Shown: positions 698 to 36,108, counted from the first letter of the stretch. The stretch is DNA of 37,503 bases from a virus (IMGVR_UViG_2513237219_000007:1-37503); one strand, 5' to 3'. Numbers and translations: made by a program. Notes: a model not told the origin generated them from the letters alone.

Positions 698-1060
698 GGG
701 GCTGATTCTGGATTCGACGGGATTTGCGAAACCCAAGGTGCATGCCGAGGGGCGGTTGGCCTCGTAAAAAGCCGCAAAAAATAGTCGCAAACGACGAAAA
801 CTACGCTTTAGCAGCTTAATAACCTGCTTAGAGCCCTCTCTCCCTAGCCTCCGCTCTTAGGACGGGGATCAAGAGAGGTCAAACCCAAAAGAGATCGCGT
901 GGAAGCCCTGCCTGGGGTTGAAGCGTTAAAACTTAATCAGGCTAGTTTGTTAGTGGCGTGTCCGTCCGCAGCTGGCAAGCGAATGTAAAGACTGACTAAG
1001 CATGTAGTACCGAGGATGTAGGAATTTCGGACGCGGGTTCAACTCCCGCCAGCTCCACCA
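698..1060 (+). ncRNA. ssrA: tmRNA (transfer-messenger RNA, SsrA), 363 nt
   Basis: Starts GGGGCTGATTCTGGATTCGACGGG; internal tag reading frame GCAAACGACGAAAACTACGCTTTAGCAGCTTAA (787..819, ANDENYALAA-stop); tRNA-like 3' end GGTTCAACTCCCGCCAGCTCCACCA. Confidence 0.95.
1016..1060 (+). repeat. attL: 45-bp ssrA 3'-end core shared with attR
   Basis: ATGTAGGAATTTCGGACGCGGGTTCAACTCCCGCCAGCTCCACCA occurs identically at 36064..36108. Confidence 0.85.
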
Positions 1061-1070
1061 AATAAATCAA

Positions 1071-1099
1071 GGGGTTACGTAAAAGCGTAGCCCCTTTTT
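1071..1099 (+). terminator. Rho-independent terminator after ssrA
   Basis: Hairpin GGGGTTACG-loop-CGTAGCCCC (one G-U pair) followed by TTTTTCTTT. Confidence 0.6.
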
Positions 1100-1118
1100 C
1101 TTTGGTAGTGGCGGCAAA

Positions 1119-1157
1119 ATGGCGACAGACTTTTGCGTCCATCTTGCCTGTCGCCAT
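1119..1157. promoter_or_regulatory. Perfect 10-bp inverted repeat upstream of BRCT-domain gene (candidate operator or hairpin)
   Basis: ATGGCGACAG (1119..1128) and CTGTCGCCAT (1148..1157) separated by 19 nt; AAGAGG RBS follows before the ATG at 1184. Confidence 0.35.
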
Positions 1158-1183
1158 CTTGAAATCATGCAAAGAGGTTTCAC

Positions 1184-1666
1184 ATGGAAGAACTTCACTT
1201 TGTTTACATCAATGCAAATGGTCGTATCGGAGTTCACTCAATACAGAGCATCAGTTATAGCGAAAATCATATACAGGGCATTTGTAAGAACACCGATCGA
1301 ATAAAAACCTTCCGAAAAGACCGCATTCTTAAACAGTACGATTCACCAGAACAAGCCATTCAGGAATGCGCGTCATTCCTCCCCGAAAACTACTCACACC
1401 TCACTAAGCAGTCTGGTCCGAAAAAAAATACATTCGATGTGTGTTTCACCGGATTTAAGAAAGCAGATAAAGAAAGATTGGTTGATAAGGCGAATGAACA
1501 AGGATTAACGGTAAGAACCTCTGTAACCCAAAGCCTTCAGATGCTCTGTTGCGGTTACAATGCAGGCCCATCAAAAGTATCGGCAGCCAGGATGAAAGGC
1601 ACAATCATCATAGATGAGCCTGGCTTTATACATTTTCTTGAAACGGGTGAGATCCCAGATGAATAA
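1184..1666 (+). CDS. BRCT-domain protein (accessory gene between attL and ogr)
   Basis: 160-aa ORF; C-terminal half CFTGF..ERL..EQG..V..SVT..CCG..G.SKV..A..G.II.E..F..FL matches the BRCT fold pattern of NAD-ligase C-termini; N-terminal about 80 aa unassigned; own RBS. Confidence 0.6.
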   Translation: MEELHFVYINANGRIGVHSIQSISYSENHIQGICKNTDRIKTFRKDRILKQYDSPEQAIQECASFLPENYSHLTKQSGPKKNTFDVCFTGFKKADKERLVDKANEQGLTVRTSVTQSLQMLCCGYNAGPSKVSAARMKGTIIIDEPGFIHFLETGEIPDE

Positions 1667-32698: not shown

Positions 32699-32701
32699 CT
32701 T

Positions 32702-33742
32702 ATGACCATCAGAAAACAGCCGAACGGAAAATGGTTGTGTGAGTGCTATCCCAATGGACGCAATGGTAAGCGCGTGCGTAAGCAATTTGCTACCAAAGGC
32801 GAAGCCATTGCGTTTGAAAGCTTCACAATGGAAGAAGTGAACAAAAAACCATGGCTAGGGGAAAAGGAAGATCGGCGACATCTATCAGAATTAATTGAGC
32901 TGTGGTATTCCCTGTATGGTCAAACACTCGCAGACCCCAAGCGCCTCATGGCGAAACTTAGAATTATCTGTAATGGTCTAGGCGATCCCATCGCCTCAGA
33001 ACTGACAGCTGGTGAGTTTACGAAATACCGCGAAGCACGGTTAAAAGGTGAAGTACGAAATGAAGATGGCACGCTTATGTCGCCCGTTAAGCCCCGCACG
33101 GTAAATCTTGAACAGCGCAACCTATCATCTGTTTTTGGTACACTGAAAAAGCTGGGCCACTGGTCAGCCCCCAACCCGCTTGCTGGGCTGCCAACATTTA
33201 AAATTGCTGAGGGTGAATTGGCGTTCCTGACCCCGGAAGAAATTAAACGTCTGCTGGATGCCTGTGCTGATTCTCAAAGCCCCAGTCTGCTGATGATTGC
33301 AAAAATATGCTTGGCCACCGGCGCACGCTGGAGCGAAGCCGAAAACCTACAGAGTCATCAGGTATCAAAATACCGTATCACTTATACCAAGACTAAAGGA
33401 AAGAAAAACCGAACAGTGCCTATTTCAAAGGATTTATATGAAGAACTGCCTAAGAATAGGGGAAAATTATTTACACCTTGTAGGAAAGCTTTTGAACGTG
33501 CGGTAAAACGAGCTGGTATCGAGCTACCAGAAGGGCAATGCACACACGTATTACGACATACATTTGCAAGTCACTTTATGATGAATGGCGGAAACATACT
33601 GGTGCTGCGCGATATTCTGGGCCATGTCGATATAAAAATGACAATGATTTACGCCCACTTCGCTCCCGACCATCTGGAAGATGCTGTAACCAAAAATCCT
33701 CTTGCTAACCTTGGATGGAGAAAATTAGAAAGTGCTTGTTAA
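32702..33742 (+). CDS. int: Tyrosine integrase (P2/186 Int family)
   Basis: 346-aa ORF with the catalytic region HVLRHTFASHFMMNGGNILVLRDILGHVDIKMTMIYAH. Confidence 0.9.
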   Translation: MTIRKQPNGKWLCECYPNGRNGKRVRKQFATKGEAIAFESFTMEEVNKKPWLGEKEDRRHLSELIELWYSLYGQTLADPKRLMAKLRIICNGLGDPIASELTAGEFTKYREARLKGEVRNEDGTLMSPVKPRTVNLEQRNLSSVFGTLKKLGHWSAPNPLAGLPTFKIAEGELAFLTPEEIKRLLDACADSQSPSLLMIAKICLATGARWSEAENLQSHQVSKYRITYTKTKGKKNRTVPISKDLYEELPKNRGKLFTPCRKAFERAVKRAGIELPEGQCTHVLRHTFASHFMMNGGNILVLRDILGHVDIKMTMIYAHFAPDHLEDAVTKNPLANLGWRKLESAC

Positions 33743-33898
33743 TAACTATATCCAACAATACCCATGGATATCGTACTTACTTATCATAATATATTTTTTA
33801 TATATATGCCTTGAATTATATCTATGCGTATCAAAAAAAGGCTTTAACATGGATGAAAGGCCATTAACAAGTCAATACTTATTTAAACAATCACTTAG

Positions 33899-35093
33899 GG
33901 AAGGTGCGAACAAGTCCCTGATATGAGATCATGTTTGTCATCTGGAGCCATGGAACAGGGTTCATCATGAGTCATCAACTTACCTTCGCCGACAGTGAAT
34001 TCAGCAGTAAGCGCCGTCAGACCAGAAAAGAGATTTTCTTGTCCCGCATGGAGCAGATTCTGCCATGGCAAAACATGGGTGGAAGTCATCGAGCCGTTTT
34101 ACCCCAAGGCTGGTAATGGCCGGCGACCTTATCCGCTGGAAACCATGCTACGCATTCACTGCATGCAGCATTGGTACAACCTGAGCGATGGCGCGATGGA
34201 AGATGCTCTGTACGAAATCGCCTCCATGCGTCTGTTTGCCCGGTTATCCCTGGATAGCGCCTTGCCGGACCGCACCACCATCATGAATTTCCGCCACCTG
34301 CTGGAGCAGCATCAACTGGCCCGCCAATTGTTCAAGACCATCAATCGCTGGCTGGCCGAAGCAGGCGTCATGATGACTCAAGGCACCTTGGTCGATGCCA
34401 CCATCATTGAGGCACCCAGCTCGACCAAGAACAAAGAGCAGCAACGCGATCCGGAGATGCATCAGACCAAGAAAGGCAATCAGTGGCACTTTGGCATGAA
34501 GGCCCACATTGGTGTCGATGCCAAGAGTGGCCTGACCCACAGCCTGGTCACCACCGCGGCCAACGAGCATGACCTCAATCAGCTGGGTAATCTGCTTCAT
34601 GGAGAGGAGCAATTTGTCTCAGCCGATGCCGGCTACCAAGGGGCGCCACAGCGCGAGGAGCTGGCCGAGGTGGATGTGGACTGGCTGATCGCCGAGCGTC
34701 CCGGCAAGGTAAAAACCTTGAAGCAGCATCCGCGCAAGAACAAAACGGCCATCAACATCGAATACATGAAAGCCAGCATCCGGGCCAGGGTGGAGCACCC
34801 GTTTCGCATCATCAAGCGACAGTTCGGCTTCGTGAAAGCCAGATACAAGGGGTTGCTGAAAAACGATAACCAACTGGCGATGTTATTCACGCTGGCCAAC
34901 CTGTTTCGGGCGGACCAAATGATACGTCAGTGGGAGAGATCTCACTAAAAACTGGGGATAACGCCTTAAATGGCGAAGAAACGGTCTAAATAGGCTGATT
35001 CAAGGCATTTACGGGAGAAAAAATCGGCTCAAACATGAAGAAATGAAATGACTGAGTCAGCCGAGAAGAATTTCCCCACTTATTCGCACCTTC
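33899..35093 (+). mobile_element. IS5 insertion sequence (about 1.2 kb) flanked by 4-bp TTAG target-site duplication
   Basis: Terminal inverted repeats GGAAGGTGCGAACAAG (left) and CTTATTCGCACCTTCC (right); TTAG at 33895..33898 and 35094..35097; encodes InsH. Confidence 0.9.
33967..34948 (+). pseudogene. insH: IS5 transposase InsH with an apparent +1 frameshift
   Basis: [37 protein letters not shown] is in one frame and [19 protein letters not shown]... in the next; the sequence reads ACATGGGTGG where canonical IS5 has ACATGGTGG. Confidence 0.8.
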
Positions 35094-36063
35094 CTTAGGA
35101 TTCCTGTATTTTCAGCGATATACTTTGGTATATTTTCCTGGCTTGGACATTCCCCTCAATTTGATAGTGAGGGCTTTAATAATTTCATTGCAATTAGCAA
35201 GCTTCCTATCGCCTTACTTTCTTTGTCCATACCATTTGTTGCTGTCGTAGCAAACATACACCGCACAGTTCAAACAAACCGACAAATTGAGGAAACCAAG
35301 CAAAAGAATCTATCTGATAGCTACTATAGCCATCTAAAGTTCGTTACTGATTATTTCACCAATTTACCTAACAAAACCATTAAACGCGAACGTCATTATG
35401 GTACTAAAGAGATAAGTTATAAAATAAACTACCCAATACATCTATATAGATATATTTTCATAAATAGCTCACCAGAGAAGGGACGGCCTAAAAATACAGA
35501 TAAAGAGTACATACGTGAAGTAAATAATCACTGGGTTGATATACTAAAAAACCTAGAGAAGATACATTCATCTAATCGTGGCTCTCAGTTTGCCGAAGTT
35601 TTAATCCGTCAAATGCAATCTCTTCATTCAATAGAAAAACACTTATCCGAACTTAATCGAATGCTTTGCCTAACTCCCATGGAGTTAAATGAACATGCAA
35701 CTTTATACTTTGATGGATATGAAATGATTACTAACTTCATGTCCAGCATTGAACTTGGCGATACAATTGAAACCTACTTCAAATTTACCATTGATATTCT
35801 TGATATTACCGATAATTTCCTTTCATTCAAGGATGATGGCTCGTCTGGGCAAATCATTATACTAGCAAGATTACTGAAAGATAATAATCCAGCTATCTTT
35901 GATGAAATTGTAACAAACAAAGGGAAGGCTCAACCTTCGTTGACCTACAATGGCGACAGATTGGCGACAGAACATTAAAAATGAGTAAAACGGACAAACA
36001 CAAGATAATACTAACTTACTGATTTTAAACGCAAGTTAATGTTTTTGCTATAGTGAAAATGGT

Positions 36064-36108
36064 ATGTAGGAATTTCGGACGCGGGTTCAACTCCCGCCAG
36101 CTCCACCA
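36064..36108 (+). repeat. attR: displaced ssrA 3'-end copy (45 bp)
   Basis: Identical to 1016..1060; also serves as the att junction for the downstream P4-type-integrase element. Confidence 0.85.

Follow-up and report, generated by a model that had tools for sequence, protein, structure and literature searches.

A Fels-2/SopEPhi-type prophage in probable tandem with a P4-type-integrase island at the Escherichia coli tmRNA gene

In 2003, under the title "Traffic at the tmRNA gene", Williams reportedly described a single tmRNA gene used by several integrative elements, with the 3' end restored by each of them. No integration target is more enriched than the tmRNA gene according to Islander (PMC4383910), which lists 125 tandems and counts an element as a tandem member only when it brings both an integrase gene and a tDNA fragment of its own. 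The P2-like phages Fels-2 and SopEPhi of Salmonella enterica integrate in ssrA (Pelludat et al. 2003, cited in PMC3448106 and in Table 1 of PMC10107115). In Salmonella LT2, Fels-2 (P2 integrase) and Stm27X (P4 integrase) are both found at ssrA (PMC10107115). Here we compare these systems with a viral stretch of 37,503 nt (IMGVR_UViG_2513237219_000007:1-37503, the window), whose right edge is the stop codon of a P4-type integrase gene. An earlier note on this DNA, with coordinates that all proved correct, had placed a P2-type prophage between ssrA and a P4-type-integrase island.

The tmRNA gene and its 45-bp repeat

The host gene smpB (1..483, +) lies upstream of ssrA; it shows 100% identity to VG12A2 SmpB by tblastn and is annotated at the same place in NCTC9040 and K-12. 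The ssrA gene is intact at 698..1060 (+) and was found complete by both ARAGORN and Rfam (RF00023, 295.8 bits, model positions 1-374 of 374 covered), with the tag ANDENYALAA. Its last 45 nt (ATGTAGGAATTTCGGACGCGGGTTCAACTCCCGCCAGCTCCACCA) occur in two exact copies in the window, one at the ssrA 3' end (1016..1060, +) and one at 36064..36108 (+), which bears out the single exact recurrence claimed in the earlier note. The copy number stays at two with up to three mismatches tolerated, and the chance expectation for a 45-bp repeat is none (100 shuffles). The first copy is the attL core within the functional gene and spans the T-arm, the 3' acceptor strand and CCA, with T357 at window position 1054; the same 45-mer is present in the attP of phage Cartapus, and in the Fels-2 record it is divided between the two ends. 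The second copy, defined by the repeat search and by alignment limits, is the displaced ssrA 3' fragment. It forms the attR core of the prophage and also the ssrA-derived left end of the island. In genomes with other downstream contexts, the alignment to the window ends exactly at 36108.

The repeat edges are sharp (g/t at 1015 versus 36063, a/c at 1061 versus 36109) and the flanking DNA of the two copies is unrelated. Since the identity ends at both edges, the repeat is not part of a larger duplication, the outcome that the earlier note had named as speaking against integration. Two homopolymer frameshifts, in an IS5 transposase and in the portal gene, do suggest imperfect sequence quality, as would suit a repeat arising from a segmental duplication or an assembly artefact. 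However, the same junctions are present in many independent complete genomes and phage genomes, and the boundary matches the ssrA CCA end and the published Fels-2 attP. With the exact 45-bp limits and the same junctions elsewhere, this origin of the repeat is refuted and its probability is close to nil.

The prophage and its attachment site

Judged from its sequence, the intervening 35-kb element is a Fels-2/SopEPhi-type P2-like phage (Peduoviridae) at the 3' end of E. coli ssrA. Its tyrosine integrase (32702..33742, +; Pfam Int_N and Phage_integrase) is an ortholog of Fels-2 Int, with 316 of 341 residues identical (93%) in a gap-free alignment; the catalytic R, HxxR, H and Y, read directly in the sequence, are all present. 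The int and ogr genes (ogr at 1693..1911, -; Pfam Ogr_Delta, E=9e-21; 100% identity to the VG12A2 protein) are located at opposite prophage ends and flank att. The P2-type assignment in the earlier note is thereby upheld by the Pfam matches and by colinearity with Fels-2, and it can be refined to a Fels-2/SopEPhi-like phage with a 186-type CI/Apl/CII switch.

A terminator scan found a terminator-like hairpin and T-run after each 45-bp copy, at 1069..1096 and about 36145..36178. The first is a phage-borne ssrA terminator in the phage P' arm (1061..1183, +), which also carries two inverted copies of TGGCGACAG (1120..1128, + and 1148..1156, -). In Cartapus and Fels-2, too, this arm runs on directly from the core. 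The phage P arm (35949..36063, +) is homologous to the Cartapus and Fels-2 P arms and carries two direct copies of the same motif (35951..35959 and 35962..35970). An exact-copy search of the 37.5-kb window found four copies, all in the two arms flanking the core; their positions are conserved in Cartapus, and they are candidate arm-type Int sites. In the free phage Cartapus, window positions 35949..36108 are joined to 1061 onward as a single BLAST piece that includes the exact 45-mer, and the attP reconstructed as right arm, 45-bp core and left arm is contiguous there. The ends of the Fels-2 record yield homologous arms and core. An attP with an ssrA 3'-end core between conserved arms is thus found in Cartapus and at the Fels-2 record ends.

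Using 46 annotated VG12A2 prophage proteins as tblastn queries, the P2-type gene set from D to Q was recovered in order. The late genes (1980..20774, -), matched with PGAP-annotated VG12A2 prophage proteins and colinear with Fels-2, comprise D, U, T, E+E', FII, FI, an invertase with an invertible tail-fibre segment, G/H, I, J, W, V, S, R, lysis genes, X, L, M, N and O. Their identity to the VG12A2 proteins is mostly 94-100%, and the tail-fibre proteins H and G diverge (34-76%). The terminase ATPase subunit gpP (20917..22683, +) shows 100% identity to the VG12A2 protein. The portal gene gpQ (22683..23718, +) is frameshifted, with its tblastn match split over two frames. The alignment places one extra T near 22972 (TTTTT versus TTTT in VG12A2); this may be a genuine mutation or a sequencing error in the homopolymer.

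The early/regulatory region (25497..32698, mixed strands; Pfam and tblastn against VG12A2) encodes on the minus strand a DinI-like protein, the gpA replication protein, a 276-aa unknown ORF, Dam methylase, TraR, DUF2732, DUF5347, a Fil remnant, CII (Pfam Phage_CP76) and an 80-aa Apl/Cox-like protein with 100% identity to the VG12A2 protein. The CI repressor (32066..32698, +; Pfam Phage_CI_repr and Phage_CI_C) completes a 186-type lysis-lysogeny switch consisting of CI, Apl/Cox and CII.

Cargo is found at three places. A small ORF with a BRCT-like C-terminus lies between attL and ogr (1184..1666, +; phrog_2561, E=2e-77; weak BRCT match) and is a homologue of Cartapus gp32. The known gpQ-gpA hotspot holds a PD-T7-1 anti-phage defence gene (23766..25175, -; PADLOC PDLC04073, E=1.3e-196) in a region of 36% GC that is variable relative to VG12A2. 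In the int-attP hotspot, a 309-aa cargo gene (33849..35978, +; phrog_17460, function unknown; weak PADLOC '2TM effector' match) is split after codon 16-17 by an IS5 of 1196 bp with inverted repeats (33899..35094, +). The target duplication TTAG is present at 33895..33898 and 35095..35098. Removal in silico of IS5 and one copy of the duplication restored the cargo ORF, which shares about 99% identity with WP_000344474, the intact version in VG12A2; IS5 is missing at exactly that point in VG12A2 and CFSAN051542. Translation of the IS5 transposase indicated a frameshift (extra G at 34077..34079). The portal frameshift suggests that the prophage is unable to make virions now, and with the IS5 insertion as well it may be defective. 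No damage is seen in int, in the apl-like gene or in either att site.

Compared with Fels-2 (Felsduovirus), the prophage shares homologous P and P' arms, an ssrA 3'-end core and a phage-borne terminator in attP. It also shares the colinear order ogr-D...Q, gpA, Dam, CII, Apl, CI, int, and a Gin/Cin-type invertase with an invertible tail-fibre segment. Likewise, the displaced fragment has stayed intact and reads CGCCAGCTCCACCA, as tabulated for both Fels-2 and SopEPhi (PMC10107115). In contrast to Fels-2, the host here is E. coli, and the identity with ssrA covers 45 bp; the Fels-2 annotation gives 47 bp (23+24 nt), a difference that apparently stems from divergence of E. coli ssrA immediately upstream of the block. 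The BRCT-like ORF between att and ogr, the int-att cargo gene, PD-T7-1 in the Q-A hotspot, the IS5 insertion and the portal frameshift are further differences from Fels-2. The closest known systems include Cartapus and the prophages of E. coli VG12A2, 504211 and 503440. Cartapus (NC_070909, Peduoviridae, Elveevirus) has the exact 45-bp core, and its arms, BRCT-like ORF, ogr and tail genes are about 96% identical, whereas its Int region shows only about 84% DNA identity and its int-att cargo is a RES/NAD+ protein. In VG12A2 the complete arrangement is found at 96-99% identity, from ssrA through the prophage with the same cargo gene to the same island integrase, but this strain is without IS5 and the portal frameshift, and its tail fibre and Q-A cargo are unlike those in the window.

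The downstream island

The displaced repeat is followed, as had been noted, by a terminator and a P4-type integrase gene. The island leader (36109..36273, +) contains its own terminator, the hairpin at about 36145..36178, which is homologous to the terminator after ssrA in K-12 CP4-57; the leader is contiguous with ssrA in NCTC9040. The integrase (36274..37503, +) shows 100% identity to the NCTC9040 gene and has the Pfam domains Arm-DNA-bind_3, Phage_int_M and Phage_integrase. It matches NCBIfam PRK09692 with 442 bits (cutoff 434) and shows 48% identity to K-12 IntA and 35% to P4 Int over the full length. The island integrase gene sits directly downstream of the regenerated ssrA 3' end with an island-borne terminator, as seen in NCTC9040.

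The earlier note had likened this arrangement to CP4-57 of K-12. The likeness to that cryptic prophage holds for position and structure: in both, ssrA is followed at once by a homologous terminator belonging to the island and then by a P4-type integrase gene, with the same domain architecture and at the same chromosomal site between ssrA and ypjA. The element is not CP4-57 itself. That identification was rejected on the 48% identity to IntA and on the different gene content in relatives (CP4-57 has IntA, AlpA, Rnl etc.). The cargo of the relatives' islands consists of a three-component ABC-type system and Hxs genes in NCTC9040 and of sensor kinase/response-regulator-like genes in VG12A2. K-12 has a distal CGCCAGC-CCACCA fragment, whereas a search downstream in NCTC9040 and VG12A2 for CGCCAGC(T)CCACCA or a longer block found none; the island distal end in these two strains is marked by IS3/IS150 and a truncated ygaQ.

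Within the window the phage has both an integrase gene (32702..33742) and an ssrA fragment (36064..36108); the island has an integrase, with its far end beyond the window. The island presumably integrated at ssrA, which we argue from its position and from the existence of naive sites because no flanking repeat pair was seen. The phage and island integrases probably cut different parts of the 45-bp core, with the phage crossover lying approximately 5' of T357; the core would then be overlapping, not strictly shared, between the two elements. The proposal that ssrA was used twice in a tandem array with a shared core therefore stands for the phage (repeat, attP and empty site). For the island it is less fully documented by the strict Islander definition, since the distal fragment was not found in two relatives.

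Empty sites and the order of insertion

Comparison with prophage-free relatives, as the earlier note had advised, gave a precise result. NCTC9040 is a base-perfect empty site, 100% identical to window 1..1060 and 36064..37503 with the 45-bp core as the overlap. Among 5426 complete E. coli genomes, 956 have this P4-type integrase directly behind ssrA, with no phage between, and 166 have the left phage junction. The second outcome that the earlier note had named as refuting, the lack of any such empty site, was thus not borne out. Naive ssrA sites were found in 1385 genomes. The phage right end and core lead into this island in at least 8 genomes, into the native ypjA flank in 87, and into a K-12-type CP4-57 flank in the Kp4865-2 record. 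Phage integration is independent of the downstream context. The island is also found behind other phages, namely Fels-2-like phages with different cargo and the Stx phage phi467.

It is very probable that a Fels-2/SopEPhi-type phage was integrated by Int at ssrA of a lineage that already held the P4-type-integrase island. A temperate phage of the Peduoviridae, originally about 33.8 kb, would have entered by Int-mediated site-specific recombination. Its attP, with a 45-bp stretch matching the ssrA 3' end, would have recombined with ssrA in an E. coli lineage in which the island already abutted the gene. This exchange would have left ssrA intact, and the gene would now draw its 3' end and terminator from phage DNA (attL 1016..1060 and hairpin 1069..1096). 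The former ssrA 3' end would have moved 35,048 bp downstream (attR 36064..36108), still leading into the island terminator and integrase. Later, IS5 presumably inserted into the phage cargo gene, and the portal gene gained, or was sequenced with, its frameshift.

Most likely the island was in place before the phage arrived, because the island alone is common (956 genomes), is decayed and without a distal att in two relatives, and the window flanks are identical to those of a phage-free strain. Had the phage entered a naive ssrA first and the island later used the displaced 45-bp fragment (the phage attR) in place of the functional gene, the end structure would be identical. The displaced copy does hold the last 13-16 nt used by P4-type integrases (PMC10107115; K-12 CP4-57 attR keeps only CGCCAGC-CCACCA), and naive sites (1385 genomes) and phage-only sites (87 genomes) both exist. 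We nevertheless regard this reverse order as very unlikely. In 956 genomes the island stands alone beside ssrA, and one of these genomes matches the window flanks at 100%. Truncation by IS3/IS150 and the absence of a distal att in the relatives examined give the island the look of an old, immobile element. The simplest account of its presence behind several different phages is that phages have repeatedly inserted upstream of an island already in residence.

The prophage and island could also have been imported as one block by transduction or conjugation, followed by homologous recombination in smpB-ssrA and the island flanks, so that the att repeat was inherited. Near-identical tandem arrangements do occur in several unrelated strains, the prophage segments are mosaic (90-100% identity to different relatives), and the sequence fits import and de novo integration equally. 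Yet the window flanks are 100% identical to phage-free NCTC9040, and the tandem-array strains show only 96-97% identity in the island integrase region, which speaks against those strains as a joint source of phage and island. Even an imported block would ultimately go back to Int-mediated integration at ssrA. We consider block import unlikely and favor insertion of the phage beside a resident island.

Tandem arrays at ssrA are already published, including Fels-2 with a P4-integrase island in Salmonella LT2, and the present arrangement is well-known and ordinary. It does not differ in kind from the published arrays at tRNA/tmRNA genes; here it is an E. coli case with a different P4-type island.

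The tmRNA gene, its repeated 3' end and the empty site

The window opens with smpB (1..483), and a complete tmRNA gene, ssrA, is found at 698..1060 (ARAGORN, tag ANDENYALAA; Rfam RF00023, 295.8 bits, model positions 1-374 of 374). Its 3'-terminal 45 nt are ATGTAGGAATTTCGGACGCGGGTTCAACTCCCGCCAGCTCCACCA. In the window this 45-mer has two copies only, at 1016..1060 (attL) and 36064..36108 (attR), even with three mismatches permitted, and sequence shuffles indicated that no chance copy is expected. Pattern search and shuffles thus bore out the exact repeat of the ssrA end at 36064..36108 reported in the earlier note. 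The bases bordering the two copies differ on both sides, so the repeat extends no further than its 45 bp; the larger duplication that would have undermined the integration reading does not hold. Each copy is followed by a separate hairpin and T-run. Pfam and NCBIfam searches also placed three genes where they had been reported: ogr (1693..1911, minus strand; Pfam Ogr_Delta, E=9e-21), the phage tyrosine integrase gene (32702..33742, plus strand) and the gene for an integrase of P4 architecture (36274..37503, plus strand), which heads an island downstream of attR.

Comparison with prophage-free relatives, as the earlier note had proposed, was carried out with a synthetic empty-site query (ssrA, one core, island leader and integrase), counting matches over at least 80% of its length. 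The junction, a single ssrA 3' end followed by the P4-type integrase, was matched in 956 of 5426 complete E. coli genomes, among them NCTC9040, which carries the island and no prophage and matches at 100% identity over the full length. By BLAST, window 1..1060 equals NCTC9040 19501..20560 and window 36064..37503 equals NCTC9040 20516..21955, both at 100%, and the two matches overlap by precisely the 45-bp core. The window minus one core and the intervening DNA is NCTC9040, base for base.

A synthetic attP (right arm, core, left arm) matches the free Escherichia phage Cartapus as one contiguous piece across the junction, with the exact 45-mer between homologs of window 35949..36063 and of the sequence from 1061 onward. 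The same arms and core, together with the terminator, appear when the two ends of the Fels-2 record are joined. Escherichia phage 500465-1 (NC_049342) was rejected as a free-phage attP: it is a mis-delimited prophage, and its RefSeq record runs about 9 kb past attL into host genes (ffh to smpB), which is an annotation artefact. Another such artefact is found in E. coli WP3-S18-ESBL-09, in which PGAP names a 177-nt 'ssrA' at a displaced fragment of a tandem array.

Of the 5426 genomes, 166 contain the left junction, in which ssrA is followed by the phage left arm and ogr. The phage right arm and core are followed by this island in E. coli VG12A2, which carries a homologous prophage, and in at least seven other genomes; further genomes have the same junction but a different int-att cargo. 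In 87 genomes the right arm and core are followed by the native ypjA flank, and in genomes with other downstream contexts the match stops exactly at window 36108. In record OK490418 the flank is identical to the attL flank of CP4-57, the ssrA element of K-12. That record (OK490418.1, 'Klebsiella phage Kp4865-2', UNVERIFIED) encodes an Int 100% identical to that of the window, and shares its cargo gene and core with the window; either this phage lies in tandem with CP4-57 there, or the host is mislabelled. Wild-type ssrA is joined straight to its native flank in 1385 genomes, and these naive sites show the island, too, to be an apparent insertion at the ssrA 3' end.

Gene content, defects and cargo of the prophage

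Prophage genes were called by tblastn with 46 PGAP-annotated proteins of the homologous VG12A2 prophage. The minus-strand late genes occur in the order D, U, T, E/E', FII, FI, invertase and tail-fibre segment, G/H, I, J, W, V, S and R, and continue past R with the lysis genes, X, L, M, N and O; P and Q are on the plus strand. The early region reads DinI, gpA, Dam, TraR, DUF2732, DUF5347, CII and an Apl-like gene, then CI and int. The P2-type prophage predicted earlier from int and ogr at opposite ends therefore has a full P2-type gene set in order, and its layout is colinear with that of Fels-2. Since its Int is 93% identical to Fels-2 Int, the prophage is, by sequence, assigned to the Peduoviridae as a Fels-2/SopEPhi-type phage that has a 186-type switch and is not a close relative of P2 itself. 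Together with the empty site and the attP, this gene content supports the interpretation of a prophage at ssrA ahead of a P4-type-integrase island, with the refinements described below.

The repeats are spaced by 35,048 bp, which becomes about 33.8 kb after subtraction of a 1,196-bp IS5 and its 4-bp target duplication (Fels-2, 33,693 bp; Cartapus, 33,368 bp). The prophage is now correctly delimited as 1061..36108, about 33.8 kb before the IS5 insertion. IS5 occupies 33899..35094, flanked by TTAG at 33895..33898 and 35095..35098, and this IS5 was not found at the position in any complete E. coli genome of the collection searched. An extra G at 34077..34079 shifts the reading frame of the IS5 transposase gene. 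The portal gene gpQ (22683..23718) has one extra T near 22972 in a T-run compared to VG12A2, splitting it into two frames; either the prophage is defective or the homopolymer was misread in sequencing. Sequencing error is possible for both frameshifts because both fall in homopolymers. The int, apl-like and CI genes and both att sites are intact. If the frameshifts are real, excision would probably still be feasible and virions would not be producible.

Three accessory loci were identified. One is PD-T7-1, another is the phrog_17460 gene that IS5 disrupts at the int-att hotspot, and the third is an uncharacterized ORF between dam and gpA. PD-T7-1, a full-length gene for anti-phage defence (23766..25175, minus strand; PADLOC E=1.3e-196), occupies the gpQ-gpA hotspot, where GC is low (36%) and where VG12A2 instead has ParA-like and other genes; this Q-A hotspot has already been described (PMC9122126). 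The gene split by IS5 (33849..33898 and 35099..35978, between int and attR) encodes a 309-aa protein with predicted N-terminal membrane helices. It has no Pfam or NCBIfam match, belongs to a PHROGs family of unknown function and shows a weak PADLOC '2TM effector' match (E=8e-5). The int-attP locus of other genomes is occupied by an anti-phage dCTP deaminase, gapS1 or a RES/NAD+ protein, which makes the split gene a candidate for defence as well. The int-att cargo hotspot was set aside as a novelty, being already known in P2-like phages (PMC13586616). The third locus is a 276-aa ORF (28446..29276, minus strand) with no Pfam match; the surrounding segment, 28371..29361, has nothing corresponding to it in VG12A2 and may represent a further accessory locus.

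A Gin/Cin-type invertase gene (8960..9532, minus strand) adjoins alternative tail-fibre C-termini and chaperones on opposite strands, and imperfect 27-nt inverted repeats are found near it at 9582..9608 and 11412..11438. Region 8960..12474 is a host-range segment of the invertible kind known from Fels-2, Mu and P1. Between attL and ogr, a conserved 160-aa ORF (1184..1666, plus strand; phrog_2561, annotated 'DNA ligase') has a BRCT-like C-terminus; it is present in Cartapus and absent from Fels-2.

Crossover segments and the downstream island

The phage attP carries ssrA from just 5' of the T-arm through CCA, plus a terminator. Int-mediated exchange restores a functional ssrA with a phage-derived 3' part and terminator, and the former ssrA 3' end is displaced to attR. 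The ssrA 3' end and terminator that function in the window strain are thus phage-supplied. The motif TGGCGACAG has four exact copies in the 37.5-kb window, all within the att arms (35951..35970 and 1120..1156). The P-arm pair is direct, 94-113 bp upstream of the core, and the P'-arm pair is inverted, 60-96 bp downstream. Their positions are conserved in Cartapus and recognizable in Fels-2, and we consider them candidate arm-type Int sites. The P-arm pair overlaps the final codons of the cargo gene.

E. coli CFSAN051542 carries a related, partly deleted prophage. At its attL, ssrA is wild type; its attR is exactly ΔT357 (loss of the base at ssrA position 357, window 1054), followed by the native ypjA flank. 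The 3' part of this attR therefore came from the host side, a hint that the crossover may lie 5' of position 357. P4-type elements use only the final 13-16 nt (K-12 attR, CGCCAGC-CCACCA). In the Stx phage phi467 (LN997803), in tandem with the same island, the ssrA-derived block begins at GGGTTCAAC. This Stx-converting lambdoid prophage has its shorter ssrA block, which lacks 3 nt at the CCA end, at the record end; the same P4-type integrase comes next, at 96% identity. Such a prophage adds a third type of element found in tandem with the island. The Fels-2-like, P4-type and phi467 elements, whose crossover segments probably differ, make at least three element classes that use ssrA. The earlier note's tandem array is supported in that both phage and island appear to have used ssrA; its single shared att core probably is not, as the middle 45-bp copy is a composite of phage attR and island attL.

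The likeness of the island to CP4-57, also drawn in that note, is limited to position and integrase family. The two are distinct elements: the island integrase shares 48% identity with CP4-57 IntA and 35% with P4 Int, and the island cargo in relatives differs from that of CP4-57. A distal att was not found in NCTC9040 (21 kb downstream) or VG12A2 by a 26-nt pattern with 3 mismatches, a repeat finder or the ΔT357 13-mer. In these two relatives the distal side consists of IS elements and a truncated ygaQ, and with no distal att the island looks old and fixed there. From distribution, not phylogeny, we infer that the island came first and the phage second: the island is often present by itself, its NCTC9040 copy is identical to that of the window, it appears old and fixed in the two relatives, and several different phages sit ahead of it.

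Possible protection of ssrA and significance

Excision of CP4-57-type elements leaves ssrA with the inactivating ΔT357 lesion (PMC10107115). It is a tentative and rather unlikely proposition, drawn from junction sequences, that a Fels-2-type insertion between ssrA and a P4-type island might uncouple ssrA from damaging excision and could even repair a damaged gene. In a tandem array the excision lesion would fall in the non-functional attR copy of the phage instead, and a phage integrating into a ΔT357 ssrA would restore the wild-type 3' end from attP. The CFSAN051542 junctions are the footprint expected under such insulation or repair. They suggest that the phage integrated into a scarred ssrA or that the island was later excised from a tandem array. 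They also suggest that phages which target ssrA may protect it from, or mend, the lesion left when P4-type islands excise. At the 87 phage-only sites, the record span is mostly consistent with wild-type T.

The arrangement is already known in kind, with near-identical instances in public genomes. Integration at ssrA has been published for Fels-2 and SopEPhi (Pelludat et al. 2003, as cited in PMC3448106). Table 1 of PMC10107115 (after Williams 2003) gives two elements at Salmonella LT2 ssrA: Fels-2, with a P2 integrase and an intact fragment, and Stm27X, with a P4 integrase. The window pairs elements of these same types. Among integration targets the tmRNA gene shows the strongest enrichment, and cataloguing of tandem arrays is routine, with 125 in Islander (PMC4383910). 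Biologically there is little new here; it is a clean, fully documented case of serial tmRNA-gene use by integrative elements, for which public genomes supply an empty site that matches to the base, the attP of a free phage and several other downstream contexts. The ΔT357 footprint is the sole thread with mild novelty. Found in a related strain, it hints at an interplay, at ssrA, between phage integration and excision of the island, which is testable with existing CP4-57 genetics. If insulation or repair holds generally, phages that target ssrA would serve the tmRNA 'phage regulatory switch' as insulators or patches.
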